From assembly GCA_963842085.1 (NCBI GenBank), contig CAWJET010000001.1:512001-576000 (forward strand): a stretch of DNA of 64,000 nt. Reading direction: 5' to 3'. This stretch comes from an uncultured delta proteobacterium (GTDB lineage: Bacteria; Desulfobacterota; Binatia; Binatales; Binataceae). The translations under genes and the position numbers were made by a program. The notes under the pieces are model-generated. The model did not search any database and was not told the DNA's origin. It saw nothing but the letters and a program-made list of their open reading frames with translations. Shown here piece after piece: positions 159 to 63,658 of the stretch. Each line of letters opens with the position of its first letter. Position 1 is the stretch's first letter.

Positions 159-222
159 GAGACGAGTTCGCGTCAGACTCGTGCATCCCTGCAGCCAGTC
201 AGAGCAAAACGCGTTATCTCCG
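159..222 (+). repeat. att-like element-end motif (GAGAnnAGTTCG..CAGACT..CAGTC..AAACGCGTTATCTCCG)
   Basis: Aligns with 63595-63658 and shares the CAGTC-n-AAACGCGTTATCTCCG tail with 35512, 36079, 59311(-) and 27730(-). Confidence 0.6.
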
Positions 223-470
223 AAAGGCCGCGAACACCGGTTCGGGATATCGGCATAATTCGGTTGTGCATTTCCTCGCATCTAACGTCCGACGCGCGAT
301 GGCACGCCTGCCGGCAACCCTACCTTTTCGAGCGCTTCAATCGCCCGATCGATCCGTCCCCTCTCCTTCTTGAGATCCGCCACTATTCTTTCCAACTCCA
401 ACATTTGCTCCTTTGGTCAGTCCCGCAGGCGCTCCGTTCCCACGACGACCAAGTGTGATGAGGCATATAC

Positions 471-701
471 CTGATCGAGCTCATTGAACGCGCCGAGCTT
501 AGCAGCGAGGGTGTCAAACTCTCGCTAAAGCTCCCCCTCCTTCGAGCAGAAACAGGTGACAGCGCTCCCCCGGATCATTTTTCTCTCGCAAAGTTCGTCC
601 CGATCCAGATGAAGCGGCGCGGCGTTGAGATGCGAATGGTATTTGAGGGCGCCTCCACGCCAGCCCGGGTTGACGTGCCACCCAAAAGCTTCAACCGATA
701 G
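471..701 (+). pseudogene. remnant of the C-terminal region of a large serine recombinase
   Basis: Translates to LIERAELSSEGVKLSL..FVPIQMKRRGVEMRMV, similar to LERVELKRDGMQITV..FVPLQMRRRGIETRLV in 11143-12807. Confidence 0.7.
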
Positions 702-845
702 CTCAGTGAACGAACGACTGTGTCGCGATCGAAGCGGGCCAGGAAAACGGATGGCGCGTGGGACGAATCATTAATCCGTTTGGACAGAACTGGGAGATCG
801 GCAAATTGCGGAGACAACCCGAAGTTAACACGCCACCTTGAAATT

Positions 846-2543
846 TCAGAAAGTGTTCCAGAACGAATCGCATATGTGGAAGCTGTTGAAGTTGGTCTCG
901 GGCATCGGCGTCGGCGGGACCAACGACTGGAACTCGTCTGTTGATGCGCTGTACTTCGGCCACGCCGGCTGGCTGGACGAGTTAGGGTTAAGTGTCTTCG
1001 CGAATTGGGTCCAGTAGCTGATCATGCTGTTGGAAAGCATCTGCTGATCGGTAGTGAACGGGAAGATCCCGCCTGTTACGAGCATGATGTATTGAATCTC
1101 GGCGCCGTGAAACGCGCCCAGCGGAAAGCTCAGGCCCGGGATAGTGCCGGGAGGCGCGTTCTCGTCGTTGAACTCGTACGCATAGGCCGTTGTGAACTTC
1201 GACAATGACTTATCTGCATTGCGCGCCGGACAGCTAAAGACTCCGTCAGTACCCGAGGCGCTCAATGCCAGCCCGCCGACCGGGTAACTGCCATAGGGAT
1301 AGAGGTTCTCCACATAAGGCGCCAATGCCGAAGTCCACAGAGCGGTGACCGCGGCGTCGTATTCCGCCTGAGTATCGATAGGATTCCCTACTGCGTCGTA
1401 CTCCTCAGCTACGAAGCCTCTATATTCATCGTGATTGGTACCGGCCATGACAGGCACTCTATTGAATCCACCTTCGGCAAACGCGGCGCTGGGTGTCTGA
1501 GTAAGCAGTTTTCCGTCGACAAAGGGATACACCACAGATGCCTCTACTTCGACCAAGGCATCGGCAGACACGGCTCGCAGGCATTCGGCGGTCTGGCTGG
1601 AGCACCCGACAGCCGTCGCGACGGAGTTACCGGAAGGAGCGAGGCCGTTGGTAGTCTCGGCGGTCGCCAGCGTCTCGATAGCAGTAAAATAGTCCTGGAA
1701 TTCCAGGTAGGATCCGCTCTCCACTATCGCGCCGCGGAATAGTCCCTTCGCAAGTGGAGACGCTAGCTGGCAATACACGCTCTGCCCGCCAGCGGACTCG
1801 CCGAAGATAGTAACTTCCTTAGGATTTCCGCCAAAGGCCTTGATGTTGTCCTTGACCCATTTGAGCGCGAATTGCTGATCCATGAATCCATAGTTGCCGA
1901 GCAAATGCTTCTCGGCGTCGAGCCCGGACTCGGCCAGGAATCCCAGCACACCAAGGCGGTAGTTGATTGTGACAACGATGACACCTCCGCCGTTCACCAG
2001 CGGCGTAGGATCGTAAAGGTCGCCGCCTTGGGCGGTAAGCCCACCCCCGTGAATCCATACCATCACCGGCAGACCGCTCGATTTCTTCTTCTTTGCTTCG
2101 GGAGCCGTCGCTTCGTCGGCTTGTTCCGCCGCCCCTTCGCCAGATACGGCCTGGGAGGGCGCATAAACATTCAGGAACAGGCAATTCTCGCTGCCGGTCG
2201 GTGAAGGTGATCCAGGTTGCGTGCACTCACTGCCGAATGCGGTCGCCTCGAGAGGCGCCGTGAACTTACCGAAGGCCTTCGGTGGCATCCAGCGCAAAGG
2301 TCCCACCGGAGGCTTGGCGTAGGGGATGCCGAGAAATTCGTTCACCCCATCAACCGTCATGCCGAGCACGGCTCCGTCTTTGGTGATGGCAAACGGCGAT
2401 GGGTATGATGGCTTCTGCTTGTTGGCCGACGCGGTCGCTGCCGGTCCCAGCGTTAACGCGCAGATACCGGCCAATCCGAGGATAAGTCTGGAAGTAAGCG
2501 CATGATGCCAGCGCTGCTCGTTCGCTCTCGTGCAGTCGTTCAT
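846..2543 (-). CDS. secreted type-B carboxylesterase/lipase
   Basis: FLGIPYA, SENCLFLNV, WIHGGG, GESAGG nucleophile elbow, FHGAEI; N-terminal signal-like segment. Confidence 0.92.
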   Translation of the reverse strand: MNDCTRANEQRWHHALTSRLILGLAGICALTLGPAATASANKQKPSYPSPFAITKDGAVLGMTVDGVNEFLGIPYAKPPVGPLRWMPPKAFGKFTAPLEATAFGSECTQPGSPSPTGSENCLFLNVYAPSQAVSGEGAAEQADEATAPEAKKKKSSGLPVMVWIHGGGLTAQGGDLYDPTPLVNGGGVIVVTINYRLGVLGFLAESGLDAEKHLLGNYGFMDQQFALKWVKDNIKAFGGNPKEVTIFGESAGGQSVYCQLASPLAKGLFRGAIVESGSYLEFQDYFTAIETLATAETTNGLAPSGNSVATAVGCSSQTAECLRAVSADALVEVEASVVYPFVDGKLLTQTPSAAFAEGGFNRVPVMAGTNHDEYRGFVAEEYDAVGNPIDTQAEYDAAVTALWTSALAPYVENLYPYGSYPVGGLALSASGTDGVFSCPARNADKSLSKFTTAYAYEFNDENAPPGTIPGLSFPLGAFHGAEIQYIMLVTGGIFPFTTDQQMLSNSMISYWTQFAKTLNPNSSSQPAWPKYSASTDEFQSLVPPTPMPETNFNSFHICDSFWNTF

Positions 2544-2814
2544 CGATTTTGAGTCCCTCCGATCGAGTCTTTAAAACACGCCGCGACGCGTCTTCTTGCA
2601 TGAACAATTTTACTGTAGATGCCGCAACTCATCTGGATGACTGGGAGCAGAACATACGAGGTCGCGATCAGGAATATTGAAAAGTCGAATCTCTGCAGCG
2701 CGCGAAAAAGGTCTGCCCACCCTCCCACAATCGCCTCTCTCCTCTCGCACCACTCGGTTGGCTTCATAAGACCGGGCCGATTATTCGCTCTTCGCCGGAG
2801 AGGCTCGAATTGGT

Positions 2815-3118
2815 AAACGGTCGCCTCGACATATTCGCGGTAGTCAGACCTGCTTTCGAGCAATTTCTGATGGGTACCTTGCGCGGCGATTCTGCCGCGG
2901 CTGAGAAAACAGACACTATCGCACTCCATCAGCGTGGTTGCGCGATGCGCTAGAACTATTATGATGCGATTGCGAGCGAGCTGCTCGCCCTCGGCGCCGC
3001 ATTTTTCACAGCCATAATCCTGGGGCGGAAAGAAAGTGTAGCCGCGTCCTTTGAGCGCGGGAATCGCGTCGGTGCTGCTCTCAGAAAGAGTTGGCTGAGC
3101 GAGAATCAGCTCGATCAT
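2815..3118 (-). pseudogene. chimeric fragments: Zn-ribbon/OB-fold protein N-terminus joined to an ABC ATPase C-terminus
   Basis: YTFFPPQDYGCEKCG followed by IIVLAHRATTLMECDSVCFLSRGRIAAQGTHQKLL (ABC H-loop tail). Confidence 0.55.
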
Positions 3119-3211
3119 GGTACCTCCCAGTTGTCATACACGAGTACGCTTAACAAAATTATCTGTCAACACATACTTGATTGTTAGCAACTAAAGTATT
3201 AAAAGTAGCCT

Positions 3212-3862
3212 ATGGATGCGGAAACCCAAATCGGAACAATTCGCAAGCGCCGCCGCCACACCCAGAATGAGCGCCGCGCTCTTTCCGACCAGAGAATGCT
3301 CGAAGCGGCGCTGAAATTAATCGCCCGTCAAGGCAGTGGACGCACGACGCTAGCCGAGATCGGTGAAGTCGCCGGCTACACCTACGGCTTGGTCTCCAAT
3401 CGTTTCGGATCGAAGGCGGCGCTGATTCGCGCCGTCACGCGCATGCTGCAGTCGCATTTCGCGCGCCGGACCTTCGCAGAAATCGAAAACCTCACTGGGC
3501 TAGCTGCCCTGAAGGTTCTGGTCGAAAAGTATTTGACCACAATGGATTCGTCTGGTCGGCGCGCTCTTTACGTATTGATCGGCGAAGCCCTGGCGCCAGT
3601 GCCCGAGATCAGGCCTGAGATGGCGGAAGCCGATGAAGGCTTTCGCCGACATCTTGAGACCCATATCCAGCGCGGGATCACCTCCGGGGAAATCCGTTCC
3701 GACGTCAATCCTGCCGCACAGTCTGCGCTGCTGGTGGCTACGCTACGGGGCATCTCCTTTCAGGGTCTGATCAATCCCCAAGCGTTCGATCGCAAAACCA
3801 TCGCGAGTGAATTGCAGTTGAATATCGAAAGAACTCTCCGGCGCCCCGGCGTGCAATCTTAA
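3212..3862 (+). CDS. TetR/AcrR family transcriptional regulator
   Basis: N-terminal HTH (RMLEAALKLIARQG..TTLAEIGEVAGYTYGLVSNRFGSK) and TetR_C-type GEIRSDVNP. Confidence 0.9.
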   Translation: MDAETQIGTIRKRRRHTQNERRALSDQRMLEAALKLIARQGSGRTTLAEIGEVAGYTYGLVSNRFGSKAALIRAVTRMLQSHFARRTFAEIENLTGLAALKVLVEKYLTTMDSSGRRALYVLIGEALAPVPEIRPEMAEADEGFRRHLETHIQRGITSGEIRSDVNPAAQSALLVATLRGISFQGLINPQAFDRKTIASELQLNIERTLRRPGVQS

Positions 3863-3902
3863 TCATCGGGACGGAAGTAACCGGGAGCCCTCGATTTGAG
3901 AC

Positions 3903-4029
3903 CTAGCAGGTTGCGGAAAAACTCAATGAAAGACGATTTCGGCGAAGAGTAAGCATTACTACGATCACGAGAATGCGTCTTGGATCAATGTCATCAGGAG
4001 TCAAAAACCCTTTTTCCGCAACCTGCTAG
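3903..4029 (+). mobile_element. MITE, 119-bp core between CTAG repeats, TIR CAGGTTGCGGAAAAA (IS5/IS1182-like ends)
   Basis: Perfect terminal inverted repeats; exact reverse complement of 60304-60430. Confidence 0.9.
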
Positions 4030-4058
4030 AGCCGAATCTCCTGCGCACAAAGATCGAG

Positions 4059-5381
4059 ATGAACATGATGACCGGCATGTCTATCGCACTGGTCGGCGCG
4101 ATAGCCGCCATCGCAACCGGTGTCGCCGCTGCTTACGCGCAATCGCATTCCGCGCCGGCCACCGCGCCGAGCCCACTCCCTTCCACGGCTCACACCGCCG
4201 GCGCTGGAGTGTCCTCCGTGTCCGCGCCCGGAACCATCATAACCTCCGGCAACGCGTCCGCGTACGCGAACAATCTCCCCGCTGCCGCGGCGCTCGCCCT
4301 ACAGCACGGTTTCAAAATCCAGGTAGTGCCGACCGACACGCTTCAATGGTCGGCCGGCTTCCAGAGCGCGACGGAAAAATATTCGTCGCAGGTGGGCCTC
4401 GACAAAGACGATTACATGATCAATTACGTCGCCGGCATGCCTTTTCCACTGATCGACGCTAACGATCCGAAAGCGGCGGTCAAGATCGCATACAACTGGC
4501 ACATGGGGCCCGTGCTGCCCGACGATTTCTCGCTGTCGCCATGGAGCAGTAACGGCTACCTCGCGGATCAGAACAACCCGGCGCGGTTTCGGCAGTCCGA
4601 CGATTTCGACAGTCTGTGCGACAAGTTCGACTTTCTTCGCTACGCACATCGCACGGAAGTCGATCCACGCCCGACGCTGGGTTCCAACTCGAGCGGTGTG
4701 GAATGGAAAGCCAAGTGCAATCAGTGGTCAGCCATTGGCTTCGGCGCGTCTGCAGGCGAAGGCGCAGGCATCTGGATCCGCTATCTCGATCCCAAGGCTC
4801 ATGACGGATTCTACAGTATCAGCCAGCAGTCCCGTCGCGTCCGCCAGGCGGAAATCGCGCTTCAATATCCCAATCACGTCTGCCGCCAATGCCATCAGCC
4901 CTACTGGGCGTATGCGCTGCCGAAGACGGAAATCTACACCTATCGCCTGCTAGGCACAGCCCCGATTCTCGGGTGCATGAACGCTAATGACGAGCCCGCG
5001 GGAATCACGCCGTCGGAATCCGGGTACCGGCTCACGGAGGAGCCGTTCCAGTTGCGCCACGCCTACATCCTCGAGATGACGCCGACTCAGAACAACCTTT
5101 CGGAGCGTACCCTGATATTTATCGATAGCGAAATCTACGTTTGGCTCGCCGCTGAGTTCTACGAAGGCGGGGAGCGCGTTGCGACGGCGATCCCGCTATG
5201 GCATCAGCATCCGTCGCCCGAAGGTGGCAACTTGTTCGACCTGGCGGGCAGCTTCTACTTTTCCAGCGAGCATCCGGACTTCTTGCGATCGGTCGTGCCG
5301 GCGCATACTTCGTTCACACAGAAGATCAATGCCGGCGAGGCCTCCGAGAGCGATTTCCTGCCGCAGATGATGATCCGATAG
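4059..5381 (+). CDS. DUF1329-like exported protein
   Basis: Signal peptide; ATEKYSSQV.L....NYVAGMPFP.ID.NDP.AA.KIAYN motif typical of DUF1329. Confidence 0.75.
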   Translation: MNMMTGMSIALVGAIAAIATGVAAAYAQSHSAPATAPSPLPSTAHTAGAGVSSVSAPGTIITSGNASAYANNLPAAAALALQHGFKIQVVPTDTLQWSAGFQSATEKYSSQVGLDKDDYMINYVAGMPFPLIDANDPKAAVKIAYNWHMGPVLPDDFSLSPWSSNGYLADQNNPARFRQSDDFDSLCDKFDFLRYAHRTEVDPRPTLGSNSSGVEWKAKCNQWSAIGFGASAGEGAGIWIRYLDPKAHDGFYSISQQSRRVRQAEIALQYPNHVCRQCHQPYWAYALPKTEIYTYRLLGTAPILGCMNANDEPAGITPSESGYRLTEEPFQLRHAYILEMTPTQNNLSERTLIFIDSEIYVWLAAEFYEGGERVATAIPLWHQHPSPEGGNLFDLAGSFYFSSEHPDFLRSVVPAHTSFTQKINAGEASESDFLPQMMIR

Positions 5382-5481
5382 CGGAAAAGGAGGCCCCGTA
5401 ATTGAACGGTGACATTCTGGATCTTGATGGTCGCGTTGGTCTGATAACAGTTTTAGTTACCAGTCATCCGCCATTTTAAAC

Positions 5482-7080
5482 CTACTCGCGTTCCATGAAG
5501 CCCTCGAGGTTGCGCGAGCGCCCAGTCTGGCGCAGCTTGCGCAGCGCCTTCGCCTCGATTTGGCGAATACGTTCGCGGGTGACGGCAAACAGCTTACCGA
5601 CCTCTTCGAGGGTGCAGTCGGCCTTCCGGCCGATTCCGAAGCGCATCCGCAGGATCTGCTCTTCGCGTGGCGTCAGCGTCGCCAATACCTTGCGCGTCAG
5701 CTCGCCGAGATTGCCCCGGATCGCTGCCTCGACCGGTGATGGCACCAATTGGTCCTCGACGAAGTCCCCGAGCGATCTTTGCTCATCGTCGCCGAGCGGG
5801 GTTTCGAGCGAGATCGGCTCCCTGACGAGCTTGAGCGCCTTCTGGACCTTGTCAAGCGGCATCTCCATCTGCTCGGCAACCTCCTCCGGGCTCGGCTCGC
5901 GGCCCAGCCGCTGCACCAACAGGCGCGTCACGCGCAGCAGCTTGCTGACCGTCTCAACCATGTGGACCGGGATACGGATCGTCCGGCTCTGGTCGGCGAT
6001 TGCACGCGCCATCGACTGCCGAATCCACCACGTCGCGTAAGTCGAGAACTTGAAGCCGCGCTGGTACTCGAACTTCACCACCGCCCGCATCAGGCCAATA
6101 TTGCCTTCCTGGATAAGGTCGAGGAGCCCTAGCCCGCGGTTCGCGTTACGCTTGGCAAGGCTCACCACCAGCCGCAAGTTGCCTTCGGTCAGCTCCTGCT
6201 TGGCGCGCCGGCTCTGGGCCTGGCCCGACGCGATCGTTTCGAGCGAGCGCGCAAATTCGTCGGTCCCAACCTTGACCCGGCGCTCGACCTCCTTGACGGT
6301 CTTCTGCGCCTGTTTGATTCGCGCGGCGATATTGAGCAGGTTCTCGCGGTTGCCGTTGATCTTCAGCAAATGGCGGCGGTCTTCGGCCTTGGCCGCGTCG
6401 CACAGAAGCTGCGACTTACTGCGGCCGGTCGCCTCCTCGTAACGCTGGATCAGCGTCTGCGAATCGCGCGCTTCCTGGAGCAGGCGGCGCAGCTCGCCGA
6501 TGACGGCCTCCTGCAGGTGGCGCGAAAGCTCAAGATGATGCAATTCGCGCCTGACGCTCTCCTTGAAACGCACCTGCGACTTCTCGAGTTTCGCCTTCAG
6601 GATCGGCTTGGGCCGCTGCTTGAGCTTCTCCTCGAGATCCTCGATCCGGTGCTGCAGCGACTTGAGCTTGGTGGTCGCGGTGAACAGCTGTTTGAGTCGC
6701 TTTTCGTTGGCCTCGCGCCCACGCTCCTCATCGGCGTCGGTAGGCTCTTCGTTTTCATCGAAGAGGTCGCGCAGTTCAGCCTCGCCCGCCTCGACTCGCG
6801 TGCCCATCTCGATTACCAAATCGAGCGTCACCGGAGAACGCAGAACCTCCTCCTCGACTGCGTTCTCGCCCGCTTCGATGCGCTTTGCGATTTCGACTTC
6901 CTGCTCCCGCGAGAGGAGCTGGAAGTTACCCATCTCCTTGAGGTAGAGGCGGACGGGATCCGACGACTCGCCGATCGATTCAGCGGCCGGCGCGGGCTCG
7001 GCGGTATCGTCGGGCCCTTCAGCCTCGAGTTCGCCTTCCCTTCCGTCCGCCGGGACGTCGGCGAGGACCTTGATGTCCAA
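5482..7080 (-). CDS. rpoD: RpoD-like primary sigma-70 paralogue lacking region 1.1 (start uncertain, 7080 or 7131)
   Basis: [11 protein letters not shown] (1.2), [51 protein letters not shown]. Confidence 0.85.
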
Positions 7081-7108
7081 CCGCTGTGCCCGCCCAGGCG
7101 TTCGGCGA

Positions 7109-7678: not shown

Positions 7679-7750
7679 ATTGAGTTTCGTCGGACGAAAG
7701 TTTCACAACCCAGCCAGGTTCTCGCGACACCAGAATTCAAGGTTAACGAC
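7679..7750 (+). repeat. partial copy of the ~250-bp att-associated repeat
   Basis: TTGAGTTTCGTCGGACG..AACCCAGC..TTCTCGCGACACC..AATTCAAGG aligns with 35296-35364. Confidence 0.8.
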
Positions 7751-8349: not shown

Positions 8350-9369
8350 ATGAAACTCAAGGAACTCGCATTGAAGCTGGGACTCGAATTGCGCGGTGAC
8401 GGCGCCGTGGAGATTTTCGCGCCGGCGCCGATCGAGGCGGCCGGTCCCGGCATGATCGTCTTCGTGGCGAGCGCGAAGTATTCATCCGCGCTGCAATCCA
8501 ACGTATCGGCGGCGATCACGACCGCCGAGCTTGGGGCGGGCGCGAAATGCGCGACGCTTATCAGCGCAAATCCGTACGCGGACTTCGCCCGCGTGCTCAA
8601 GATTTTCTTTCCGCCGCACCGGCCCGCGCTGGGTATCGATCCGCGGGCTTCGATCGCGCCCGACGCGAAGATCGGTGCGAACGCGTCGATCGGCGCGTCG
8701 GCGGTAATCGGCGCGGGCGTTACGATTGGGCGCGATGCGGTGATTCATCCGAACGTGACGATTTACCCGGGCGTGCGCATCGGCGATCGCTTTACCGCGC
8801 ACAGCGGCGTGTCCATTCGCGAGGGAACGGTGATCGGGGATCGCGTGACGATTTTGAACGGCGCAGTAATCGGCGCCGACGGCTTCGGTTTCGTCGAGGA
8901 AAAGGGCGACTTGATCAAAATTCCGCAAGTCGGCACCGTCATACTCGAGGACGATGTGGAGATCGGCGCGAATTCGACGGTCGATCGCGCGATGATGGGG
9001 GCGACGGTGCTGCATCGCGGCGTGAAGCTCGACGACCAGGTGCATATTGGGCACAACTGCGAAATCGGCGAGTACTCGAGCTTCTCGGGCCAGACGGGAA
9101 TCTCGGGCTCGACCCGAATCGGCAAATGGTGCCTGTTCGGCGGGCAGGTAGGATGCGCCGACCACGCGACGATCGGCGATCGCGTCATTGTCGCCGCGCA
9201 GGCCGGCATCCACAGCGGCTTGAAAGACCACGCGATCGTCGGGGGCAGCCCGGCGGTGAACGTACGCAAGTACCGGCGCAACTCAGCAGCGCTGTCGCGT
9301 CTGCCCGACCTGATTCGGCGAGTGCGCGCGCTGGAGAATCGAGCCGGCATCGGCGCCAACGGGGCGTAA
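8350..9369 (+). CDS. lpxD: UDP-3-O-(3-hydroxyacyl)glucosamine N-acyltransferase
   Basis: Hexapeptide repeats, NPYADFA, IGADGFGF, KIPQVG.V, IGHNCEIG. Confidence 0.93.
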   Translation: MKLKELALKLGLELRGDGAVEIFAPAPIEAAGPGMIVFVASAKYSSALQSNVSAAITTAELGAGAKCATLISANPYADFARVLKIFFPPHRPALGIDPRASIAPDAKIGANASIGASAVIGAGVTIGRDAVIHPNVTIYPGVRIGDRFTAHSGVSIREGTVIGDRVTILNGAVIGADGFGFVEEKGDLIKIPQVGTVILEDDVEIGANSTVDRAMMGATVLHRGVKLDDQVHIGHNCEIGEYSSFSGQTGISGSTRIGKWCLFGGQVGCADHATIGDRVIVAAQAGIHSGLKDHAIVGGSPAVNVRKYRRNSAALSRLPDLIRRVRALENRAGIGANGA

Positions 9370-9988: not shown

Positions 9989-10248
9989 GCAGAAAATCCC
10001 CGCGTGACGGGGCGCTTGTGCGCTTGATGCGAACCGGAGAGCGCGAGTCCTGCACCTGATTCGGCGAATTTCTCGGGTTTGTCTCCAGGCGCAGAAAAGC
10101 CGGTTCGCTTCACGGTTCCAAGATTCGCTCATCCATCGCCTTTCTGAGATGGGGCCGGTCGCGGCTCTAGTCGATTCCGATCGCCTTCAACTGCGCCGGC
10201 CATTCGAGCGGCAGATCAATTCGGTTGAGCAGCGTCTGGGCGTTGAGC

Positions 10249-10644
10249 GCTGAACTGATCAAGATCACGATCGGATCGGCGTACCCCGACAACGAAATTC
10301 AGACCATGGAGATCAAGGGACGCGACCTGGTCGGCGGAGTGCCGAAGACCATCGAGATCACCGACGAGGAAATTCGCGAGGCGCTGATGGAACCGGTGAG
10401 CCAGATAGTCGAATCGGTGCGAATCGCGCTTGAGCGCACTCCCCCGGAGCTTGCCTCCGACATCGTGGACAAGGGAATTGTGCTGGCCGGCGGCGGCGCG
10501 CTGCTGCGCAACCTCGACGTTTTGCTCCACGAAGAAACCAGGCTGCCGGTCAGGCTGGCGGACGATCCGCTGACGGCGGTCGTGATGGGCGTGGGGAAGG
10601 TGCTGGACGAACTGTCGCTGCTGCGCGACGTGACTGTTGACTGA
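10249..10644 (+). pseudogene. mreB: 3' third of the rod-shape actin MreB (5' part absent)
   Basis: AELIKITIGSA..GRDLVGGVPK..LERTPPELASDIVDKGIVLAGGGALL; no N-terminal part upstream. Confidence 0.9.
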
Positions 10645-28542: not shown

Positions 28543-30201
<1,659 letters not shown>

Positions 30202-30245
30202 TCAACGGAATGGATCGGTATTCGCTTGTGAGCGGGCGGCAATGT

Positions 30246-30536
30246 CTACTCGATGATTCCCAGGATGTCGTCCTCGCGCAGGATCATGTGCTCTTCGCCG
30301 TCGAGCTTCACCTCACTGCCCGAGTACTTGCCGAACAGGATCTTGTCGCCGGACCTCACCTCGAGTGGGATAAGCTTGCCATCGTCTCCGTATTTGCCCT
30401 TGCCGACGGCGATTACCTTACCCTCCTGGGGTTTTTCCTTGGCCGTGTCCGGGATAACGATCCCGCCCTTGGTGCGTTCCTCCTCCTTGATGCGTTTGAC
30501 CAGAACCCGATCTCCCAGTGGTCGAAACTTCGTCAT
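30246..30536 (-). CDS. groES: co-chaperonin GroES
   Basis: [25 protein letters not shown]. Confidence 0.97.
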
Positions 30537-32474: not shown

Positions 32475-34194
<1,720 letters not shown>

Positions 34195-35283: not shown

Positions 35284-35538
35284 GCCTTGGACGACTTGAG
35301 TTCGTTGGACGGAAGTCTCGCAACCCAGCTGTGTTCTCGCGACACCGAAATTCAAGGCTAACGACCGAACTCGTACCGAACTGAAGGCGAACTCACTCTC
35401 TGGAGGATATTAGCTGATCTCGACAGGAAATTTCTCAAACAATCGCCGAGGTTTTCCTTCGGAAGGACTTCTCGCGACACCGAAGGTTCGAATCTCCCCC
35501 GCTCCCCCAGCCAGTCACCGCTAAACGCGTTGTCTCCG
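35284..35538 (+). repeat. long copy of the ~250-bp att-associated repeat with tRNA-like end
   Basis: TTCTCGCGACACC at 35334 and 35469; GGTTCGAATCTCCCCCGCTCCCCCAGCCAGTC..AAACGCGTTGTCTCCG. Confidence 0.85.
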
Positions 35539-49867: not shown

Positions 49868-50752
49868 TCATTCGCGGTTCTTTAGTTGCTGACTATCGCC
49901 GAGTCCGTACACCATCGCGGTCTTGGTGGTGCCAAGTTTGATCCATTCCGCGCAATCGAGCTGCACTCTTTTGTAGAACTCTTCGGAGAGTTCAAGCGAC
50001 TCCTTGCTAACCTCGTCGACCCGATCGAACTTGCACTGAAAGGCGAATTCGCCCGACAGTGATTTTTCCAGCGCCCGGCTCCGCCATATGGCGATGGTGG
50101 TCTTACCCTTGAAGTGGTGCCCGAAGTGGATGATGCCCATGGTGTTCTGCACTTCCTCGACCGCTACGTTGTTGACCAGCATCATTTTGGTTCTTGGCCG
50201 TATGTCTATGCGTTTGAGGGTCGGGAACGCGCGGGCAATGTCCTCGATGCCGCGGTCGAGTTCAATCTTGGGCGATGTAAGCACGCATCCATGAGAGTAG
50301 ACGCTGCGCATTCCACCCAGACGATCGCGCTCGAGCAGCAACTCCTCTTTGAACTTTATCTCATCGTGTCCACCCAATTGCGGACGCACGTCAACGGCCG
50401 CGGCGTTCTTGAGCTCCGGCGTGCGGTATTTGAAGGCCAACTCGTGGCCGGGACGGGGCCATCCCTGATCGTAGAACGTGCGCTTTCGCAGAATGAAGTG
50501 ATGATTGTAAAGGTCAAACTCCGGGGTGTCGTAAAAAAGCACTTCCCGAACCTGGCTGTCGAATGCGTGCTCGTCGACATCTACTTTAAGACCGAGTTTC
50601 TTGAGAGTCTTGGACACGGTCTCCCAAAACTCGAGAAAACCATTCTTGCTCGTAAACCGATCGGGTTGCAGCAGAATCTTGTACTCACGGTAATGAACCA
50701 CGTCGGCAGCCAGATGCTTGGTTTCGGGATGCTTGCTTATGTGCTTGTCCAT
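49868..50752 (-). CDS. hypothetical protein, possibly CYTH/tunnel-fold
   Basis: REYK near the N-terminus, VLFYDTP..L....FILRKR, AFKYR, EFAF pattern. Confidence 0.7.
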   Translation of the reverse strand: MDKHISKHPETKHLAADVVHYREYKILLQPDRFTSKNGFLEFWETVSKTLKKLGLKVDVDEHAFDSQVREVLFYDTPEFDLYNHHFILRKRTFYDQGWPRPGHELAFKYRTPELKNAAAVDVRPQLGGHDEIKFKEELLLERDRLGGMRSVYSHGCVLTSPKIELDRGIEDIARAFPTLKRIDIRPRTKMMLVNNVAVEEVQNTMGIIHFGHHFKGKTTIAIWRSRALEKSLSGEFAFQCKFDRVDEVSKESLELSEEFYKRVQLDCAEWIKLGTTKTAMVYGLGDSQQLKNRE

Positions 50753-56059: not shown

Positions 56060-56103
56060 TTCGCGATGGGCTGAACGCGTCCACGGCCGCGGTCCCAGTC
56101 CAA

Positions 56104-56598: not shown

Positions 56599-57130
56599 GT
56601 TCCAGGGGGGTTTGGATTCAAGGGGGCGGCAGTTGAGTCGCCTGATCCGTGGCCGACCAACTGAAAAAACCCTCCAGCTTCTCCCAAGGCTCGACTATCG
56701 CACGCATTTGGTGTTTTGAGTAGGCACACCGGCAGCCAGTCGCGCAAAACACGTCATTTCTGGGACGATCCCGGCCTCAAGGAAAAGTAAAATGGCCTCG
56801 TGCTTATAGGCTGGTATCTGATAGTGCTGCCAGGTGAAAAAACTATTTGACCTATACGGGGCGTCAGATAAGGCTGGTCAGATACGGGCCGTCAACAGAC
56901 CGCTCGCGAGAGCGACGCAGAGGTAAGCAAAATGGTACGACCATTCAAGCCTGCGATTTACCCCCGTCGCGCCCACCCAACCATGGGCGGGATGATCTCA
57001 TAGCTTAGGCACCTGAGCGCGAAATGGCGCGAACCCGCCGCCAGTCACGGATAAGAAACAAGCGCGGCAGGCAACGACACGACAAGACGGCTTTCTTAAG
57101 CCGCCTTAGCCGGGCCGCGGGTCATAGCCA

Positions 57131-57793: not shown

Positions 57794-57905
57794 TTGCCGA
57801 AAGCTCCTATTGGTGCGATCACCAGTTATAGCAACCCCATGTCCGCGCGAGCACAACGGCGTCGCGGAGCCTCATTGTGCGGCGGTGGTCGGCGAGAGCC
57901 GCCAG

Positions 57906-58271
57906 TTACCACAGGCGGGTGTCCCACACGTACCCGCTGATGGACGGTGCGAAAGGCCCGATGACCCAAGCCACGGTGGCAATACCAAAAGCGATAGCCA
58001 TGGCCACGTAGACAGGTAGCCACAACATTTCCCTGAGCGGCGGTGGGTTACTCCACGCCTCGATGATAGCGCCGACTGCGAGCCACGGGAAAATAGCCAA
58101 AAAGCACGCGATCGCAACGTAGCTAATTGCACTTTCGACGAAGACGAGAACGAAGTACACCGGGTCGTGGTAGTGCCTGTGATATGGCACCGTTGTCGTC
58201 AGTCGCATCGCCGCCACAGCGACCGCGATTACGACCGCTGTGATTGCAACTGGGCGAATCTTCTCCCACAT
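57906..58271 (-). CDS. small membrane protein
   Basis: Three to four hydrophobic segments. Confidence 0.45.
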   Translation of the reverse strand: MWEKIRPVAITAVVIAVAVAAMRLTTTVPYHRHYHDPVYFVLVFVESAISYVAIACFLAIFPWLAVGAIIEAWSNPPPLREMLWLPVYVAMAIAFGIATVAWVIGPFAPSISGYVWDTRLW

Positions 58272-58318
58272 GCCGGGCTAGATCCTCTTTGGGCGTTGCG
58301 CAGTGACTTTGAATCCTT

Positions 58319-58555
58319 TCAGTCTTCGTCTAGCGGCGTGTACGCATCGGGTTTCTTGTCGGGACAGGATGGCTTGCACTTTATAGGAGGTCCGAAGCCG
58401 CCGCTTGTTTGCTGCCTGTGCCATTGGTTTAAGTGGTGGTGTTTGCACGTCTCCTCTCGGTGAGTGCCTCCGACTTGTCCAGCCTTGACATTGAACAGAG
58501 GATTTTTTGAACTGTCCCAAGTAGCATCGCAACCCGGTTTACCACATTTCATCAT
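58319..58555 (-). CDS. small Cys/His-rich protein
   Basis: AGGAGG RBS; CGKPGC, CKHHH, CKPSC. Confidence 0.55.
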   Translation of the reverse strand: MMKCGKPGCDATWDSSKNPLFNVKAGQVGGTHREETCKHHHLNQWHRQQTSGGFGPPIKCKPSCPDKKPDAYTPLDED

Positions 58556-58847
58556 GCGGTCCTCCTTTTACCACGAGCCCAAATGCACCAGCGCGGCGAC
58601 GTGTCGGGGTTCATTTTGAAAACGATCTAGCAGACAGACGCGCGACCGACAAATGGGCGCTGACTGGCTGCCGGTCGGTCGCGATTGCGCATCGCTTCGC
58701 CGCCCGGCCACGATTACCGTGACGCTCGACTGATGCGCCGTTGACCGAGAGGATGCTTACGCCGCCAGCCGCCGCTCCCGCGCCCGCAGCGCCTCACCAT
58801 CGATGCCGAGTTGGACCGTGCTATCCGTGGCGGCTAAAATCGATGGT

Positions 58848-59183
58848 ATGAGAGACAAACTGTTATGCGTGCTTCTGATTCTGACCATCGCCGGTGCGCC
58901 AAAAACGTACGCACAGACCACCACCGTGCAAGTGGCTAAACTCTGCGAGGCGATCGCAAACTTCGCGAACGAAGCGGCGCGGAACCGCGATAGCGGGGTT
59001 TCGCGCGGTGACTCGCTCAAAATTGCTAGAGCAACCGCCCCGCATTTTCCGATTCCTAATAAGTCGATGCTAAAGACGGCCACGACCATTATCAATAACG
59101 TTTACGACCATCCTACGGAAAGCGCCGAAGACCTGACGCGGGACACTTTCGACGAGTGCCTCACGGAGCAATCGCCACAGTAA
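58848..59183 (+). CDS. small exported helical protein
   Basis: Signal peptide; paired Cys. Confidence 0.6.
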   Translation: MRDKLLCVLLILTIAGAPKTYAQTTTVQVAKLCEAIANFANEAARNRDSGVSRGDSLKIARATAPHFPIPNKSMLKTATTIINNVYDHPTESAEDLTRDTFDECLTEQSPQ

Positions 59184-59310
59184 GCCACCGCTGCGAGCGG
59201 ACAGCGGCGGGTAGGATCAGAGGAAAAGGCGAAGGAAGATGTCGAAATGCATTTTAGGTCCCTCAACTGTTTTCGGTCTCCGCCATTCCGCGCGGGTGTA
59301 CGCCAGCCTT

Positions 59311-59400
59311 CGGAGATAACGCGTTTTGCGCTGACTGTCTGCCGGAGCAAGATGAATTCGAACTCCCGGTACCGATTCTGGAACTTCCAGACGACAGCTC
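59311..59400 (-). repeat. tRNA-3'-like att motif with tail
   Basis: Reverse strand ..ACCGGGAGTTCGAATTCATCTTGCTCCGGCAGACAGTCAGCGCAAAACGCGTTATCTCCG. Confidence 0.75.
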
Positions 59401-59529
59401 TCGGTGAGGATTTCAGAACAGCTCGACGAGGCGGAGCGCTCTTTCCTCAAGCCTGCCCAACCGGAGCGAGATTGGCGCGTGTAGCGCGCATTTCGGAGAA
59501 GAACGTCGATCGGGGCCGGTGGTGCTCTC

Positions 59530-59620
59530 GCAGGCGGTGCGGTGGATTCTCTTGTGGTGCTGTCGGACGGCCGACTCGCCAGCGGTGGTGACGATGGCAC
59601 AATCAAGCCCTGGCCGAAAG
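59530..59620 (+). pseudogene. single WD40 repeat fragment
   Basis: VDSLVVLSDGRLASGGDDGTIKPW. Confidence 0.55.
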
Positions 59621-59685
59621 ACGCTACCTGTCGTCGACGCTTCGAGATTGCGGACTGTTCATTTGACGGAATAGCGGGCAAAGAG

Positions 59686-59970
59686 ATGAGCGCTCCAGAT
59701 ATTGAATTGGAAGCTGAGAATCTTCCCAGAGATTTTGGATACGTCTGGAGCGATTGGCTTTACGCTTATCGGCTAGTACGCCGAGTGGGAAGGGAATCAA
59801 CGGAAGAGTATCTAGCGGCTGCACCGGTCGTTGTGAGCTACGAAGATTTGAAAGACCATGGACTTGTTATCGCGCAGTACCACTCTGGCGCGACGTCGCC
59901 GACGCCTATGGAGAGGAATGCGGCGATTCAGTGGCTCCGCCAGGTGCTTAATCAGAACGAGAACATGTGA
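59686..59970 (+). CDS. hypothetical protein
   Basis: Open 94-aa frame. Confidence 0.35.
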   Translation: MSAPDIELEAENLPRDFGYVWSDWLYAYRLVRRVGRESTEEYLAAAPVVVSYEDLKDHGLVIAQYHSGATSPTPMERNAAIQWLRQVLNQNENM

Positions 59971-60024
59971 TCGTGGCCGGCTTGCTGCTTGAAGGGGCTA
60001 ATGGTTGCGAGATAGATCGACGGC

Positions 60025-60625
60025 ATGGCAGAAAACAAAGTAAATTTTTTCATCAGTTACACCGCCGTCGACGAACGTTGGGCCGAGTGGGTCGCGTTCG
60101 TTCTCGAAGAGGATGGATATTCGACGCGCCTGCAGAAGTGGGATTTTGCGGCGCGTGGTAATTTCGTTCTTGAGATGCAGCGCGCTGCGAGCGAGTCTAC
60201 CCACACCATCGGCATTTTGTCACCGGACTATCTCAATTCCAGGTTCGTTAAACCGGAGTGGGCGGCAGCGTTAGCGGCCGACCCAGAGGGGGCAAAGCGA
60301 TCTCTAGCAGGTTGCGGAAAAAGGGTTTTTGACTCCTGATGACATTGATCCAAGACGCATTCTCGTGATCGTAGTAATGCTTACTCTTCGCCGAAATCGT
60401 CTTTCATTGAGTTTTTCCGCAACCTGCTAGTGCTGGTGAGAGTACGGCCGTGTGAGCCGAGCGGACTGCTCAAGCCGATCATTTACATCGACTTGGTCGG
60501 GCTCGACGAGGTGAAGCACGCCAGCGATTGTTGAGCGGCGTGCGCAGGGATCGCGCGAAGCCGTCGACACGGCCAGCATTCCTAGGGAAAGCCACTAAGC
60601 CACCAGCTCCGTTCCCCGGCTCTTC
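60025..60625 (+). pseudogene. TIR-domain gene interrupted by the MITE, with a further frameshift
   Basis: FFISYT..DERWAEW..LSPDYL.S....EW; removing the MITE restores KRSLVLVRVRPCEPSGLLKPIIYIDLVGLDE. Confidence 0.88.
60304..60430 (-). mobile_element. MITE, second copy, with CTAG duplication
   Basis: Reverse complement of 3903-4029; sits inside the TIR gene. Confidence 0.92.
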
Positions 60626-60687
60626 ATCGTCGCTAGCCGGTAGAGAACCGAGCGTTAGGTACAAGCCGAACCTTCTTTCACGTCAAT

Positions 60688-61176
60688 TCAGAGTCGCTTT
60701 CCCCCGGGGGCACCTTCTGGCTGCTTTAGCAGATCCTCCATTTCCTGACTTGGTAAATCCGGCCCTGAGGTGCCGACCGCAATACCCAATTTGCGCATTT
60801 CATCTATGGTATCAGCCAACAAGTTGAGCCTCTGCCAGCGATCCTCAGGCTGCCACGCCTCTTGCTTTTCTTCCCGGTCGGTGAGTTTGTACTTCTCGCT
60901 GAGTGCCATCAAAGCCTGAATAGAACGGAAATCCCCTCCGGCTGCCTTGTTGACGAGCCGTCTTGAAATAACATCCATTTTGGTCACTCTCTTGCGTCGG
61001 CCTTCCTCGCTAATCACGACGCGCTCGCGGAGCGCCTCCTTCAAATGAGTAGCCATATTCTTGGCGCCGCGTGGACGCCCACGACTATTTCCCGACTGAC
61101 CCTTTTGAAAGCGTGTATGACGCGGTGGTTTGCCGTAGCCCACCTCGTATTCATCTTGCTTATTCTCGGTTTCCAC
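60688..61176 (-). CDS. DUF5681 protein (terminase-small-subunit-like position)
   Basis: YEVGYGKPP..TRFQKGQSGN.RGRPRG. Confidence 0.88.
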   Translation of the reverse strand: METENKQDEYEVGYGKPPRHTRFQKGQSGNSRGRPRGAKNMATHLKEALRERVVISEEGRRKRVTKMDVISRRLVNKAAGGDFRSIQALMALSEKYKLTDREEKQEAWQPEDRWQRLNLLADTIDEMRKLGIAVGTSGPDLPSQEMEDLLKQPEGAPGGKRL

Positions 61177-62533
61177 CTTCCCTTACCTCCCTTTCAATCT
61201 TATCAAACGGTTCGCCGCTTGCGTGTCGTGCGGTGTCGCGAGTAAAGGCCTGCCAACGGCGAACGATTGCGTCGACATATAGCGCATCTATCTCTACACC
61301 AAAGCAACGGCGTCCAGTGCGCTCGGCGGCGATCACGGTCGACCCACTGCCCAGGAATCCGTCCAGGACGATCTCGCCTCTGCTGGTGCAGTCCATGAGC
61401 ACGTCGGCGATCATCGCGACCGGCTTCACAGTCGGATGCATCGCGAGCAGGTTACCCTCGTCGCCGGACCGCGAGAAAGAGCGCGCACTTGGATAGCGCC
61501 ATACGTTCGTGCGGTTGCGGCCGAACCGACCCAGTTGAACGTTGTTGGTATGTCGTCCCTGGCCATTCTTGTAGATGAAGATGAGCTCGTGCTGACTTCT
61601 GTACAGCGAGCCCATTCCGGCATTGTCCTTCGCCCACACGCACAGGTTCATAAGCTCGCTATAGGCGGCCCTGCCGGCTGCCAGCATCTCCGAGATATGC
61701 CGCCAATCCATGCACAGGAAGTGCAAGGAGCCATCGACACTGTGGCGCGCAAACAAAGAGAATGCCTTGGCCAGAAATTCGGTGAACTGAGACTCGGTCA
61801 TTTCACCGGAACCCATAGCGAATTCCCGATGTTGAACGGTGCCGAGGCCGCTGACGTTGCCCGCGATTCTTACGTTGTACGGCGGGTCGGCGAAAATCAC
61901 CGTGGCGCGCTCGTCGTCCATCAGCTTCGTGTATGCCGACGCGTCCAGAGCGCTTCCGCAATAGACTCGGCAATCCTTTCCCAATAGCCACAGATCGCCG
62001 GGTCGAGATACGGGAGGACCGTCCGGCACACCCGCGATGTCATCAGCCGCATCTGGTTCGCCTTGGGCTTCGCTGTTTGATTGTTCGATGCGAAGATCGA
62101 TTTCGCCCATCTCGAAGCCAGTCGCCTCAAGGCTGAAATCGAGATCGAGCTCCGCAAGGTCTCTAAGCTGCTCTCCGAGTAACTTCTCATCCCAGGTCGA
62201 AATTTCGGTCAATCTGTTGTCGGCGATCATGTACGCTCGCATCTGCGCCTCGGACAGGTGCGACAAACAAATCGTCGGCACCTCCATCAAGCCGAGATGC
62301 TGAGCGGCCATGACACGGCCATGCCCGGCGATCACCTTCCCATCAGAATCGATCAGAACCGGAACATTGAACCCGAACGTCTCAATGCTCCACGCCAGTT
62401 GGCGAATCTGTCTTGCGCCGTGGACCCTTGGATTGTTTGGGTCCAGCTTCAGCTCAGAGATTGAGCGATATATCACCTCAATCCGGCCCGCCCGATCCCC
62501 ATTTCCTAAACCGCCACCCTCCAGCAACCGCAT
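61160..62533 (-). CDS. ParB-N domain + N6/N4 DNA methyltransferase
   Basis: NPR.H, FGFNVPVL, IAGHGR, IADNRL; DPPYN, HPTVKP, LDGFLGSGST. Confidence 0.93.
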   Translation of the reverse strand: MRLLEGGGLGNGDRAGRIEVIYRSISELKLDPNNPRVHGARQIRQLAWSIETFGFNVPVLIDSDGKVIAGHGRVMAAQHLGLMEVPTICLSHLSEAQMRAYMIADNRLTEISTWDEKLLGEQLRDLAELDLDFSLEATGFEMGEIDLRIEQSNSEAQGEPDAADDIAGVPDGPPVSRPGDLWLLGKDCRVYCGSALDASAYTKLMDDERATVIFADPPYNVRIAGNVSGLGTVQHREFAMGSGEMTESQFTEFLAKAFSLFARHSVDGSLHFLCMDWRHISEMLAAGRAAYSELMNLCVWAKDNAGMGSLYRSQHELIFIYKNGQGRHTNNVQLGRFGRNRTNVWRYPSARSFSRSGDEGNLLAMHPTVKPVAMIADVLMDCTSRGEIVLDGFLGSGSTVIAAERTGRRCFGVEIDALYVDAIVRRWQAFTRDTARHASGEPFDKIEREVREGGNRE

Positions 62534-62649
62534 GCCTCCACCTGTCCTTCGGCACCCTCGATTGACGAGGGGCCTATTTTTCGATAATGTAACACGAAAT
62601 TTCGTGCTGTCAAGGCGACGGCATATCATTCTATCAACAGGAGGCTCCT

Positions 62650-63351
62650 ATGAGCTTTTCAGAACGGCTGAAAAAGGTGACGGCGGAGTTCGGATCCCGT
62701 TATGCGCTGGCCAAGGCCAGCGGCATACCGGCCAGCACCCTGCAAAGTTACGAAGCCGGCTCAAAACCGGGGATGGACGCGCTTGCGACTTTGGCCCGGG
62801 TCGCAAACGTCGACATCAATTGGCTGCTATCTGGCAAAGGTGAGATGCGCCCAGCGGGTTTGCTCTCCGGCGCAGTATTAGCGGACGTCCTCATGGTGGA
62901 CCAATACGAACTTGGGACGTCACTCGCCGCGGAAATGGTGATCGGGCAGATTCCCTTCAGCCGCAGATTTCTCGAGGCCATGCTACACCTCAAAGAGCCA
63001 ACCCATGAAACGCTGCTTGCCGTGGAGGCAGGTTCGGATCTATTCGACATCGACCGCGGCGATTTCGTGCTGATCGACCGAGACCACGCAAATCTTGCTC
63101 GTGACGGTATTTACCTCGTTGACCTTCCAGGAATCGAATTGCGCGGAATTTCCCGGCAGCCCAATCAAACCGTTCGGGTCGTCGGACCGGAGCGTAGGCA
63201 TCGGTTTTCGGGCTCAGCAGGGAATGGTCGGGACGGCGAACGCCTGAGCTCAGCGGAAGTCGTGATGACCCTCCACGAGTTGCTTGGTTTCCGAGGCCGC
63301 TCGGGGTCGAAGATCATCGGAAGAGCTGTTTGGATCGGCCGCGCGCTATAG
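62650..63351 (+). CDS. XRE HTH + degenerate S24-like phage-type repressor
   Basis: FSERLK..LAKASGIPASTLQSYE..NWLLSGKGEM; DGIYLV; IIGRAVW. Confidence 0.82.
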   Translation: MSFSERLKKVTAEFGSRYALAKASGIPASTLQSYEAGSKPGMDALATLARVANVDINWLLSGKGEMRPAGLLSGAVLADVLMVDQYELGTSLAAEMVIGQIPFSRRFLEAMLHLKEPTHETLLAVEAGSDLFDIDRGDFVLIDRDHANLARDGIYLVDLPGIELRGISRQPNQTVRVVGPERRHRFSGSAGNGRDGERLSSAEVVMTLHELLGFRGRSGSKIIGRAVWIGRAL

Positions 63352-63394
63352 CAGTTTGCCTTGCCTCTGCTGCACTGAAAATGCCGGCTCGGCT

Positions 63395-63586
63395 TTCCCT
63401 GTTATAGCCAGAAAGTTCCCTGATCCTCCAAAATAATTCCCTGTTTAGTGAAAATAATTCCCTGTTTTGATGCGTAGGGAATTTGCTGAAAAACCCCCAG
63501 CTCCGTCGTGGTTTTTCTTCTCTTGGACCGCCAAATCGGAGCAGAAGCCGCGCAAATTCCCTGCATTTTCCCTGTTGATCAGGGAA
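63395..63586. repeat. TTCCCTG iterated boxes (four at an exact 21-bp period, plus converging pairs)
   Basis: Starts at 63395, 63416, 63437, 63458, 63557, 63568; inverted at 63475 and 63580. Confidence 0.85.
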
Positions 63587-63594
63587 TTTGACCC

Positions 63595-63658
63595 AGAGAT
63601 CAGTTCGAGCCAGACTGCCCCATCCGCCAGGCAGTCATAGGGAAACGCGTTATCTCCG
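63595..63658 (+). repeat. att-like right-end motif
   Basis: GAGATCAGTTCGAGCCAGACTGCCCCATCCGCCAGGCAGTCATAGGGAAACGCGTTATCTCCG. Confidence 0.7.

Follow-up and report, generated by a model that had tools for sequence, protein, structure and literature searches.

Recurrent tRNA-Ser-like sites in an accessory region of an uncultured Binataceae genome as probable attachment junctions of large serine recombinase elements

We examined a 64,000-nt stretch of DNA from an uncultured bacterium of the family Binataceae (GCA_963842085.1, contig CAWJET010000001.1, positions 512,001 to 576,000; this whole stretch is called the window below), in which ten short sites, seven of them resembling the 3' end of a tRNA-Ser gene, are distributed around a gene for a large serine recombinase (LSR) and an adjoining gene for a DUF2924 protein. 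These sites are best explained as att junctions (hybrids resembling attL, attR or attP) belonging to integrative elements with DUF2924 and LSR genes, a family present in multiple copies. The array as a whole probably arose by accretion and not as an integron: LSR elements would have integrated one after another, into tRNA-Ser or into existing junctions, and the products would then have decayed and been rearranged. The initial annotation of the window had proposed recombination sites of a serine recombinase family which mimic the T-loop and acceptor end of tRNA-Ser and are used repeatedly, and had likened their arrangement to integron logic; our comparisons favour the former proposal and speak against the latter. 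Window coordinates are preceded by w, and C1 and C2 denote the two contigs of the source genome (4.93 Mb, G+C 61%), the window being C1:512001-576000.

Association of the recombinase family with tRNA-Ser genes

The named public genomes from which 80 LSR loci were collected belong to Binatia, Alpha- and Gammaproteobacteria, Syntrophales, Acidobacteria and other groups. The DUF2924 gene lay directly upstream of the LSR gene in 71 of these loci, and in 37 an intact convergent tRNA gene was located within 600 bp past the LSR stop codon. At 29 loci this was tRNA-Ser (30 genes, with anticodons cga in 13, gga in 7, gct in 6 and tga in 4), the remainder being tRNA-Met (4) and tRNA-Lys, -Ala, -Val and -Gln (1 each). 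The median offset of the site after the LSR stop was 285 bp across phyla, and the site motif was ~ 35-fold enriched after LSR genes (a match within 700 bp past the stop in 43 of 79 loci, versus 11 matches in the other 491 kb), in agreement with the initial annotation, which had noted such sites near the recombinase genes of the window. The positions of these genes show the 3' end of tRNA-Ser genes to be the apparent natural target of the LSR family.

In the source genome, all eight DUF2924-LSR modules, which belong to several clades and retain an uninterrupted LSR gene in five cases, have a site ~ 250-300 bp past the LSR stop. One of these eight sites is a real tRNA-Ser(cga) gene (C1:3188878-3188967), the downstream flank of which resembles the right arm of the window site at w10858, with 15 of the first 100 positions differing. 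A ninth open reading frame (ORF) with a Resolvase domain (C1:1259284-1259721; 570-aa open frame), missed by tblastn with the LSR, lies directly left of the site at C1:1260351.

Of 31 genomes belonging to this class, 15 contain LSR relatives, as do 13 of 18 relatives of the same genus (both tallies include one unpublished genome, G018, which enters into tallies only). Across 32 distinct modules of the relatives, the sequence to the left of the site after the LSR gene was an intact tRNA-Ser (gct, cga or gga) in 8, an intact tRNA-Ala(cgc) in 1 and a non-tRNA arm in 9, with no site detected in the other 14. Arrays in relatives begin at a real tRNA-Ser gene and their sites are nearly all in direct orientation: tRNA-Ser(gga) of relative G009 is followed by three sites, all in +, while G013, with four LSR modules, has 8 of 9 site matches in +, and G014 contains three tRNA-Ser loci with an intact target tRNA. 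Nine of 80 LSR loci from IMG/VR viral contigs were site-bearing, three of the nine showing GACTG..CTCCGCC..CAGTC beside the LSR gene with no tRNA arm.

The tRNA-Ser(gct) gene of the source genome, which has no LSR module and shares its flank with relatives G009, G016, G011 and G013, was considered as a clean empty site and rejected, given a tyrosine integrase gene 170 bp away.

Exchange point and structure of the site arms

Each site can be divided into a left and a right arm, and two pairs of sites delimit the point at which arms are exchanged. C1:482404 and w10881 are identical on the left side over 83 nt (98% over 640 nt) and diverge from position +1, and the right sides of tRNA-Ser(gga) at C1:2178469 and of C2:1677926 are identical over 66 nt, with divergence from position -9. 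Since these pairs diverge at +1 and -9, they show that strand exchange would fall inside the last 8 nt of the tRNA, CTCCGCCA, and would therefore leave the tRNA intact; tRNA genes in occupied sites were found to be intact (ARAGORN). The exchange point directly precedes the nn-(C/G)AGTC motif, as expected from the initial description of the sites.

Beyond right arms of types R1a, R1b, R4 and R5 comes an LSR gene in antisense orientation, and the type of arm sorts with the LSR clade: R1a was found with LSRs 78-100% identical to that of the window, R1b mostly with a ~ 57% clade and R4 and R5 with ~ 54% clades. These LSR-side right arms (R1, R4, R5) have the common layout nnCAGTC (at +3 to +7)..GGAG..AAAT.CGCGCGTG, the last being the outer block. 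At the position of this CAGTC, AGTC or AGT was also found beside tRNA-Ser in many distant loci. Left arms are either a real tRNA-Ser or one of four mimic arms, L1 to L4. L2 is located ~ 520 bp upstream of the DUF2924 gene and matches the tRNA end at 16 of 24 positions in two blocks (GGTTCGAA and C.CTCCGCC), the T-stem complement being lost. L3, which may be an element arm or a chromosomal target, carries a hairpin and GACTG and adjoins genes for CI-like repressors (in relative G041 it follows a membrane-protein gene), and L4 resembles tRNA-Ser(gct). The arms occur in several combinations, namely L1 with R1a and R2; L2 with R1b, R4 and R5; L3 with R1a, R1b, R2 and R3; and L4 with R2 and R4.

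The distal arm of an element (L2, L3 or L4, and L1 in a second clade described below) retains the tRNA blocks GTTCGAA and CTCCGCCA, but not the T-stem. Loss of the T-stem complement while these blocks are kept points to mimicry of a protein-binding sequence rather than of an RNA. All six L2|R sites carry GACTG-N12-CAGTC centred on CTCC|GCCA (with AACTG as the left pentamer in one), and L3-type sites have a 14-nt spacer with an only approximate dyad centre. By this arrangement the sites would conform to the att pattern of serine integrases, an imperfect dyad around a small core.

Two further observations concern R1b arms. Behind tRNA-Ser(gga) at C1:2178469-2178905, an R1b arm and a fragment of a DUF6933 gene follow with no LSR, and this stretch is duplicated at C2:1677926-1677491, behind an L2 arm. 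The R1b arm also has a block, TTCCCTACAATCT, that is the counterpart of TTCCCGACAATCT, found together with GGGAGTC in a tRNA-Ser(tga) flank at C2:61935-61975 (locus L016), and lies five bases nearer the core; this five-base shift could reflect half-site spacing or an old arm.

A second recombinase clade appears to use a site of its own. L1 is a conserved arm of 200-270 nt with five copies, all in C1:482-548 kb, and R2 is the tail AAACGCGTT. One L1 copy directly follows the LSR gene at C1:504863-506584, with gene and site in the same polarity. On a Bryobacteraceae contig encoding an LSR 80% identical to this one, L1 (~ 230 nt) and R2 recur with unchanged polarity, and the similarity stops after R2. 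Because this contig pairs the 80% identical LSR with the same L1 and R2, L1|R2 is the putative cognate site of the second LSR clade, with the opposite site polarity. Parallel polarity of gene and site was seen at one of 43 site-bearing named loci, and R2 was counted seven times in the source genome, with a single further copy across 46 other genomes of the genus.

The R2 tail holds a perfect palindrome, AACGCGTT (e.g. w205-214, 35521-35530 and 63641-63650), which could be a separate protein-binding or restriction-type site. L1 (w10700-10880 and its copies) contains TTCTCGCGACACCG twice, and its tRNA-like end is preceded at ~ 130 nt by a degenerate copy of itself in inverted orientation. L1 was also considered as a structured RNA, which found no support: RNAalifold paired the tRNA-like end with the upstream inverted copy in a long hairpin across five copies, and two diverged copies lose it. 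An Rfam search of w10400-11200 returned only an antisense match to a tRNA-like plastid UTR (E 0.19).

Sites and recombinase module in the window

The motif described in the initial annotation was recovered at all ten places by fuzzy regular expressions and sequence reading (Table 1). Seven sites resemble the 3' end of tRNA-Ser (w10858(+), 13841(+), 19636(+), 27783(-), 35486(+), 50927(-) and 59363(-)), with the layout GTTCGAA..CTCCGCCA followed by nn(C/G)AGTC. Divergent forms were found at w166-221(+) and w63603-63657(+) and a tail-only form at w36079-36104(+), and the tail AAACGCG(T/C)T..CTC, which is R2, is present on six sites (w196, 27757(-), 35512, 36079, 59337(-) and 63632). None of them is a tRNA, ARAGORN finding 0 tRNA genes in the window; Rfam likewise gave no family at gathering score anywhere in it.

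Four window matches to the strict consensus GGTTCGAATCCNCCCCNCTCCGCCA (up to 3 mismatches) were obtained, versus 0 in each of 100 shuffles. A core profile found 24 non-tRNA sites genome-wide at E ≤ 0.01, of which 11 are located in C1:482-572 kb and 7 in the window, a count that is not independent of the profile, which was built from 22 of those 24 sites. Looser regular expressions (154 and 372 matches) gave mostly noise and were used only for picking clear sites.

Domain searches and tblastn bore out the earlier count of one intact LSR and two remnants in the window. In the intact protein, PF00239 covers aa 8-160 (E 2.5e-39) and PF07508 aa 180-276. Its catalytic domain aligns to that of TP901-1 integrase, with RKS opposite RVS, and R12 and S14 are invariant in 30 relatives. 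By catalytic domain, Recombinase domain and size (554 aa, the class spanning ~ 450-700 aa) the protein is classed as a predicted large serine recombinase. No zinc-ribbon match was obtained in Pfam at E ≤ 0.001, no Cys beyond residue 33 is invariant in the 30 relatives, and the C-terminal 130 aa matched solely phrog_14161, annotated as 'recombinase'.

The DUF2924 protein matched phrog_11806 alone in PHROGs (function unknown) and has 3761 relatives at E ≤ 1e-5; a PDB profile search gave nothing below E 1, NCBIfam nothing and the protein atlas no usable match as to its function. The adjacent 79-aa zinc-ribbon ORF has six further copies beside modules of the source genome (one of them an orphan) and accompanies more than 20 modules in relatives, with one weak match only outside Binatia-type loci. 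Together with an R1a arm and an L2 arm, the three genes form a complete 3.0 kb unit (w10882-13863), arranged as R1a arm, LSR, DUF2924, zinc-ribbon ORF and L2 arm. Comparable units of 2.5-3.3 kb are present at C1:1260366-1263319 and C2:1677926-1680480 of the source genome, at C1:30087-32970 of relative G013 and on contig C75 of relative G017.

Table 1 Sites, recombinase genes and phage-related remnants in the window
Feature	Coordinates	Strand	Description
Site 1	w166..221	+	L3-like left arm (GTTCGCGTCAGACTCG..CATCC) and R2 right arm (CAGTCAGAGCAAAACGCGTTATCTCC); core degenerate
LSR remnant	w483..650	+	tblastn: aa 401-456 of intact LSR, 36% identity
LSR C-terminal remnant	w7957..8187	-	tblastn: aa 474-550, 47% identity
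Orphan R1-type right arm and LSR 3' flank	w9959..10231	+	No core; 92% identical to C1:1260380-1260655
Site 2 (position A of intact module)	w10705..10945	+	L1 arm w10705-10881 ending GGTTCGAATCCACCCCGCTCCGCCA; R1a right arm from w10882
Intact LSR, 554 aa	w11143..12807	-	Resolvase and Recombinase domains
DUF2924 protein, 160-171 aa	w12804..13319	-	Stop overlaps LSR start
Zinc-ribbon ORF, 79 aa	w13489..13728	+	Basic, Cys4; divergent from DUF2924
Site 3 (position B)	w13830..13920	+	L2 arm (GTTCGAAATGACTGCGCTCCGCC) and R1b-type right arm without its LSR; inverted repeat GACTG-N12-CAGTC
Site 4	w19635..19669	+	Pseudo-tRNA-Ser left arm and ACCGAGTCCC (R6-like, 10 nt in common only)
Site 5	w27731..27984	-	L1 arm and R2, core CTCCGGCA
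Site 6	w35277..35537	+	L1 arm and R2, core CTCCCCCA; downstream of MGS-domain gene
Site 7	w36079..36104	+	R2 tail alone
Terminase large-subunit C-terminal fragment	w37833..38444	-	Split by IS110 copy (w38503-39588)
Site 8	w50845..50965	-	L4 arm (tRNA-Ser(gct)-like, ..CGGAACCGGCAGTTCGAATTCACT..) and R4 right arm
Site 9	w59312..59400	-	L4 arm and R2
Prophage remnant	w60688..63351		DUF5681, ParB-DNA methyltransferase, CI-like repressor; adjoins site 10
Site 10	w63554..63657	+	L3 arm (hairpin CCCTGTTGATCAGGG, GACTG) and R2; directly after CI-like repressor gene

Proposed course of events and alternative explanations

Under serial integration, the module would consist of the LSR, the DUF2924 protein and, in this lineage, the small zinc-ribbon protein. 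New elements would have entered either the tRNA or a pre-existing junction, the core being retained in such junctions, giving a head-to-tail array with each junction a hybrid between the distal arm of one element and the proximal arm of the next. Later deletions, insertions of insertion sequence (IS) elements and inversions would have removed most LSR genes and the anchoring tRNA, leaving the ten sites, the one complete unit and the two LSR remnants. Intact LSRs encoded elsewhere in the genome or in the window may still act in trans on the junctions. We infer the order of these events, the activity of the junctions, the roles of the DUF2924 and zinc-ribbon proteins and a crossover at the CG dinucleotide of the core from sequence.

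Several findings weigh against this account. No intact tRNA anchors the array in the window, and four of its ten sites are inverted (six in + and four in -), which simple head-to-tail accretion would not yield. An intact LSR is retained in one of ~ 10 segments, and the right arm lacks its LSR in five of six position-B sites examined. The L1|R2 sites resemble an intact attP more than hybrids, and several cores are degenerate. The core profile found no site in 14 of 32 modules of relatives and in 36 of 79 named loci. No pair of empty and occupied sites with identical flanks was found, and the crossover is delimited to 8 nt only. The module is contained in 11 soil or wetland sequencing runs, four of which were compared with w9000-28999 in the form of Logan contigs; no circle, deletion or bridging junction was seen at any site in these four, contigs being a weak test. 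Two weak joints, 10658>10856 (side 22) and 9577>20409 (side 27), and loose ends behind w19666 and w13920 in run X5 were given no weight as evidence. All recombination is, moreover, deduced by us from sequence.

The integron-like logic suggested in the initial annotation was not supported. The eight modules of the source genome, from several clades, leave no single platform recombinase, arrays of the relatives start from a real tRNA-Ser gene, and the segments between sites are mostly multi-gene, lie in both orientations and contain IS elements and phage remnants, the right arms belonging to the elements themselves.

A reading wider than serial integration, which we advance tentatively and with the balance somewhat against it as a whole, is that DUF2924-LSRs are phylum-spanning tRNA-Ser-specific integrases, the minimal element being the ~ 3 kb form with LSR, DUF2924 and zinc-ribbon protein. 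Each element would possess an arm that imitates the tRNA end as a protein-binding sequence, with a core common to at least five LSR clades, and every junction would remain a target. Clades would then intercalate, swap arms and mobilise LSR-less neighbours, including captured housekeeping copies. The dyad centre coincides with the palindromic CG of CTC-CG-CCA, and orientation control could thereby be relaxed, which would account for both site polarities.

Active shuffling or capture, in which functional junctions allow resident LSRs to excise, invert and re-insert LSR-less segments in trans and the array serves as a cassette store, seems unlikely. It would be consistent with the combinatorial reassortment of arms, the presence of sites in both orientations, the second housekeeping gene copies held in segments, the five uninterrupted LSR genes among the eight of the genome and the position of the intact mini-element in an L1|R1b-type junction rather than at a tRNA. 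However, serial integration alone accounts for the arm grammar, cores such as CTCCCCCA, CTCCGGCA and CATCCCTGCA are degenerate, and the segments are rich in IS elements and gene fragments. Neither a common promoter nor a single recombinase was found, and the four metagenome runs contained no alternative junctions, at the resolution of contigs.

It is very improbable that the sites play no part in recombination and are instead a dispersed tRNA-derived repeat (resembling short interspersed nuclear elements or miniature inverted-repeat transposable elements, MITEs) or a tRNA-like RNA element located at gene 3' ends. The ~ 200-270 nt L1 arm does lie downstream of MreB, MGS and LSR genes in sense orientation, and holds an inverted copy of its own 3' end, but it has no Rfam match, its five copies lack covariation support, T-stem pairing is lost in the L2 and L3 arms, and neither the sharp boundary of arm exchange nor the tight association of sites with LSR genes is in keeping with such a repeat.

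Scarcely credible is the origin of the sites as ordinary partial tRNA duplications left by tyrosine-integrase islands, with the LSR a passenger: tRNA 3' ends are used mostly by tyrosine integrases (available text of PMC4701971), as the initial annotation had fairly remarked, and such integrases occur both with DUF3987 beside tRNA-Lys, where the accessory region ends on the right, and 170 bp from tRNA-Ser(gct), yet there is no PF00589 match within the window, the distance from LSR gene to site is fixed across phyla (median 285 bp), right arms co-vary with the LSR clade, and the common core is only 8 nt long, with a GACTG/CAGTC inverted repeat typical of serine-integrase sites.

Comparison with known systems and significance

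Staphylococcal cassette chromosome (SCC) arrays are formed by Ccr large serine recombinases, which insert at the 3' end of rlmH; tandem elements lie between repeated att-type sites, and some units are recombinase-less. The array studied here appears similar in that an LSR would drive insertion where a conserved gene ends, and in its tandem units, some without a recombinase. The best NCBIfam match of the window LSR was CcrB, at 119 bits against a cut-off of 900, hence it is not a member of that family. In contrast to SCC, the target here is tRNA-Ser, a DUF2924 protein takes the place of the second Ccr, many LSR clades use one core and the host is a soil Binatia-like bacterium.

The array shares with integrons the arrangement of segments between sites recognised by one recombinase family. 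The integron features looked for were not found: neither an IntI-type tyrosine recombinase nor attI or Pc was present, nor were attC-type sites seen (no search with an attC model was made). Integron cassettes consist of one promoterless ORF plus attC, all in one orientation, and the segments here are instead multi-gene elements equipped with integrase modules of their own or remnants of these.

A small serine recombinase acting at the same tRNA-Ser end is already known. According to the available text of PMC3816273, the recombinase of the Ralstonia filamentous phages phiRSM1 and phiRSM3 integrates at the 3' end of tRNA-Ser(UCG), with a 13-nt attP/attB core that reads ACCCTCTCCGCCA on the tRNA strand; the 8-nt exchange window CTCCGCCA lies within this published core. 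Unlike the 554-aa LSR with DUF2924 described here, the phiRSM enzyme is small (~ 200 aa) and resolvase/invertase-like, and the phage is ~ 9 kb in size. The arms here are, in addition, long and clade-specific, and the elements pile up into multi-element arrays.

Prochlorococcus tycheposons are comparable in that successive site-specific integrations at tRNA genes enlarge the islands, with partial tRNA repeats inside (preprint 10.1101/2020.12.28.424599, in the part available). A tyrosine recombinase is reported there for 910 of 937 tycheposons and an LSR for the remainder, whereas the integrases of the array studied here are all LSRs, the repeats are element-borne mimic arms and the anchor tRNA is absent from this copy. 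Wolbachia phage WO has LSR and DUF2924 genes side by side where its prophage starts (PMC11376236); the available passages of that report state no tRNA-Ser target, and the hosts and element types differ.

The literature search found no paper linking DUF2924, LSRs and tRNA-Ser (supplements were not covered), all DUF2924 papers found being on Wolbachia. Serine integrases are preferred tools for the insertion of large DNA. If the proposed targeting is true, a family aimed at the near-invariant 3' end of tRNA-Ser from Binatia to Alpha- and Gammaproteobacteria would offer a ready landing site in many bacteria without gene disruption, and DUF2924, which has no known function, would gain a testable role beside an integrase. 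Island growth linked to tRNA genes, usually credited to tyrosine integrases, could then also be driven by serine integrases with element-borne mimic arms. In a large survey of LSR targets (PMC10083194), the word tRNA is absent from the main text, and its supplements may list tRNA targets.

Genomic context and additional observations

The window is enclosed in an accessory region of ~ 127 kb, in which synteny with relative G009 is lost at tRNA-Leu(taa) (C1:462973) and regained at a tRNA-Lys cluster (C1:590404). No syntenic counterpart of the window was found in the five closest relatives, where matches were limited to core housekeeping gene copies, IS elements and LSR modules. Fourteen PF00589 (tyrosine recombinase) matches occur in the genome, none of them in C1:512001-576000. 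The right edge of the accessory region is formed by a classical island (C1:586915-590473), in which genes for a DUF3987 protein and a tyrosine integrase of 578 aa directly adjoin tRNA-Lys(ctt) on its 3' side.

Segments between sites range from 0.6 to 15 kb (3-15 kb except one) and are mostly multi-gene, with genes on both strands, IS elements and phage remnants. The gene order of the prophage remnant beside site 10 is also present in relative G013. An IS3-family element (w21334-22863) has at least 10 identical copies genome-wide, and two IS110-family copies are located at w33035-33994 and w38503-39588. A MITE-like repeat of ~ 130 bp (w3900-4033 and w60297-60436) has at least 17 further copies with 97-100% identity on both contigs.

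Several housekeeping genes are present in the island as second copies, namely sigma-70, LpxD, an MreB fragment and two full MreB genes, GroES/GroEL, NuoB and a 294-aa core gene (w5482-7131, 8350-9369, 10225-10644, 28543-30536, 32475-33038 and 49868-50752; C1:481126-482166 and C1:575804-576844). In DNA these second copies share 77-91% identity with the core copies at other places of the genome and are roughly as far from the copies of relatives, and they may represent captured xenologs.

A 1033-aa ORF on the minus strand (w13946-17047) encodes a TM0106-type RecB-like nuclease, with Cas4-like and RNase H-like parts, fused to an IS66 transposase, and occupies the place expected for the LSR of the R1b arm.

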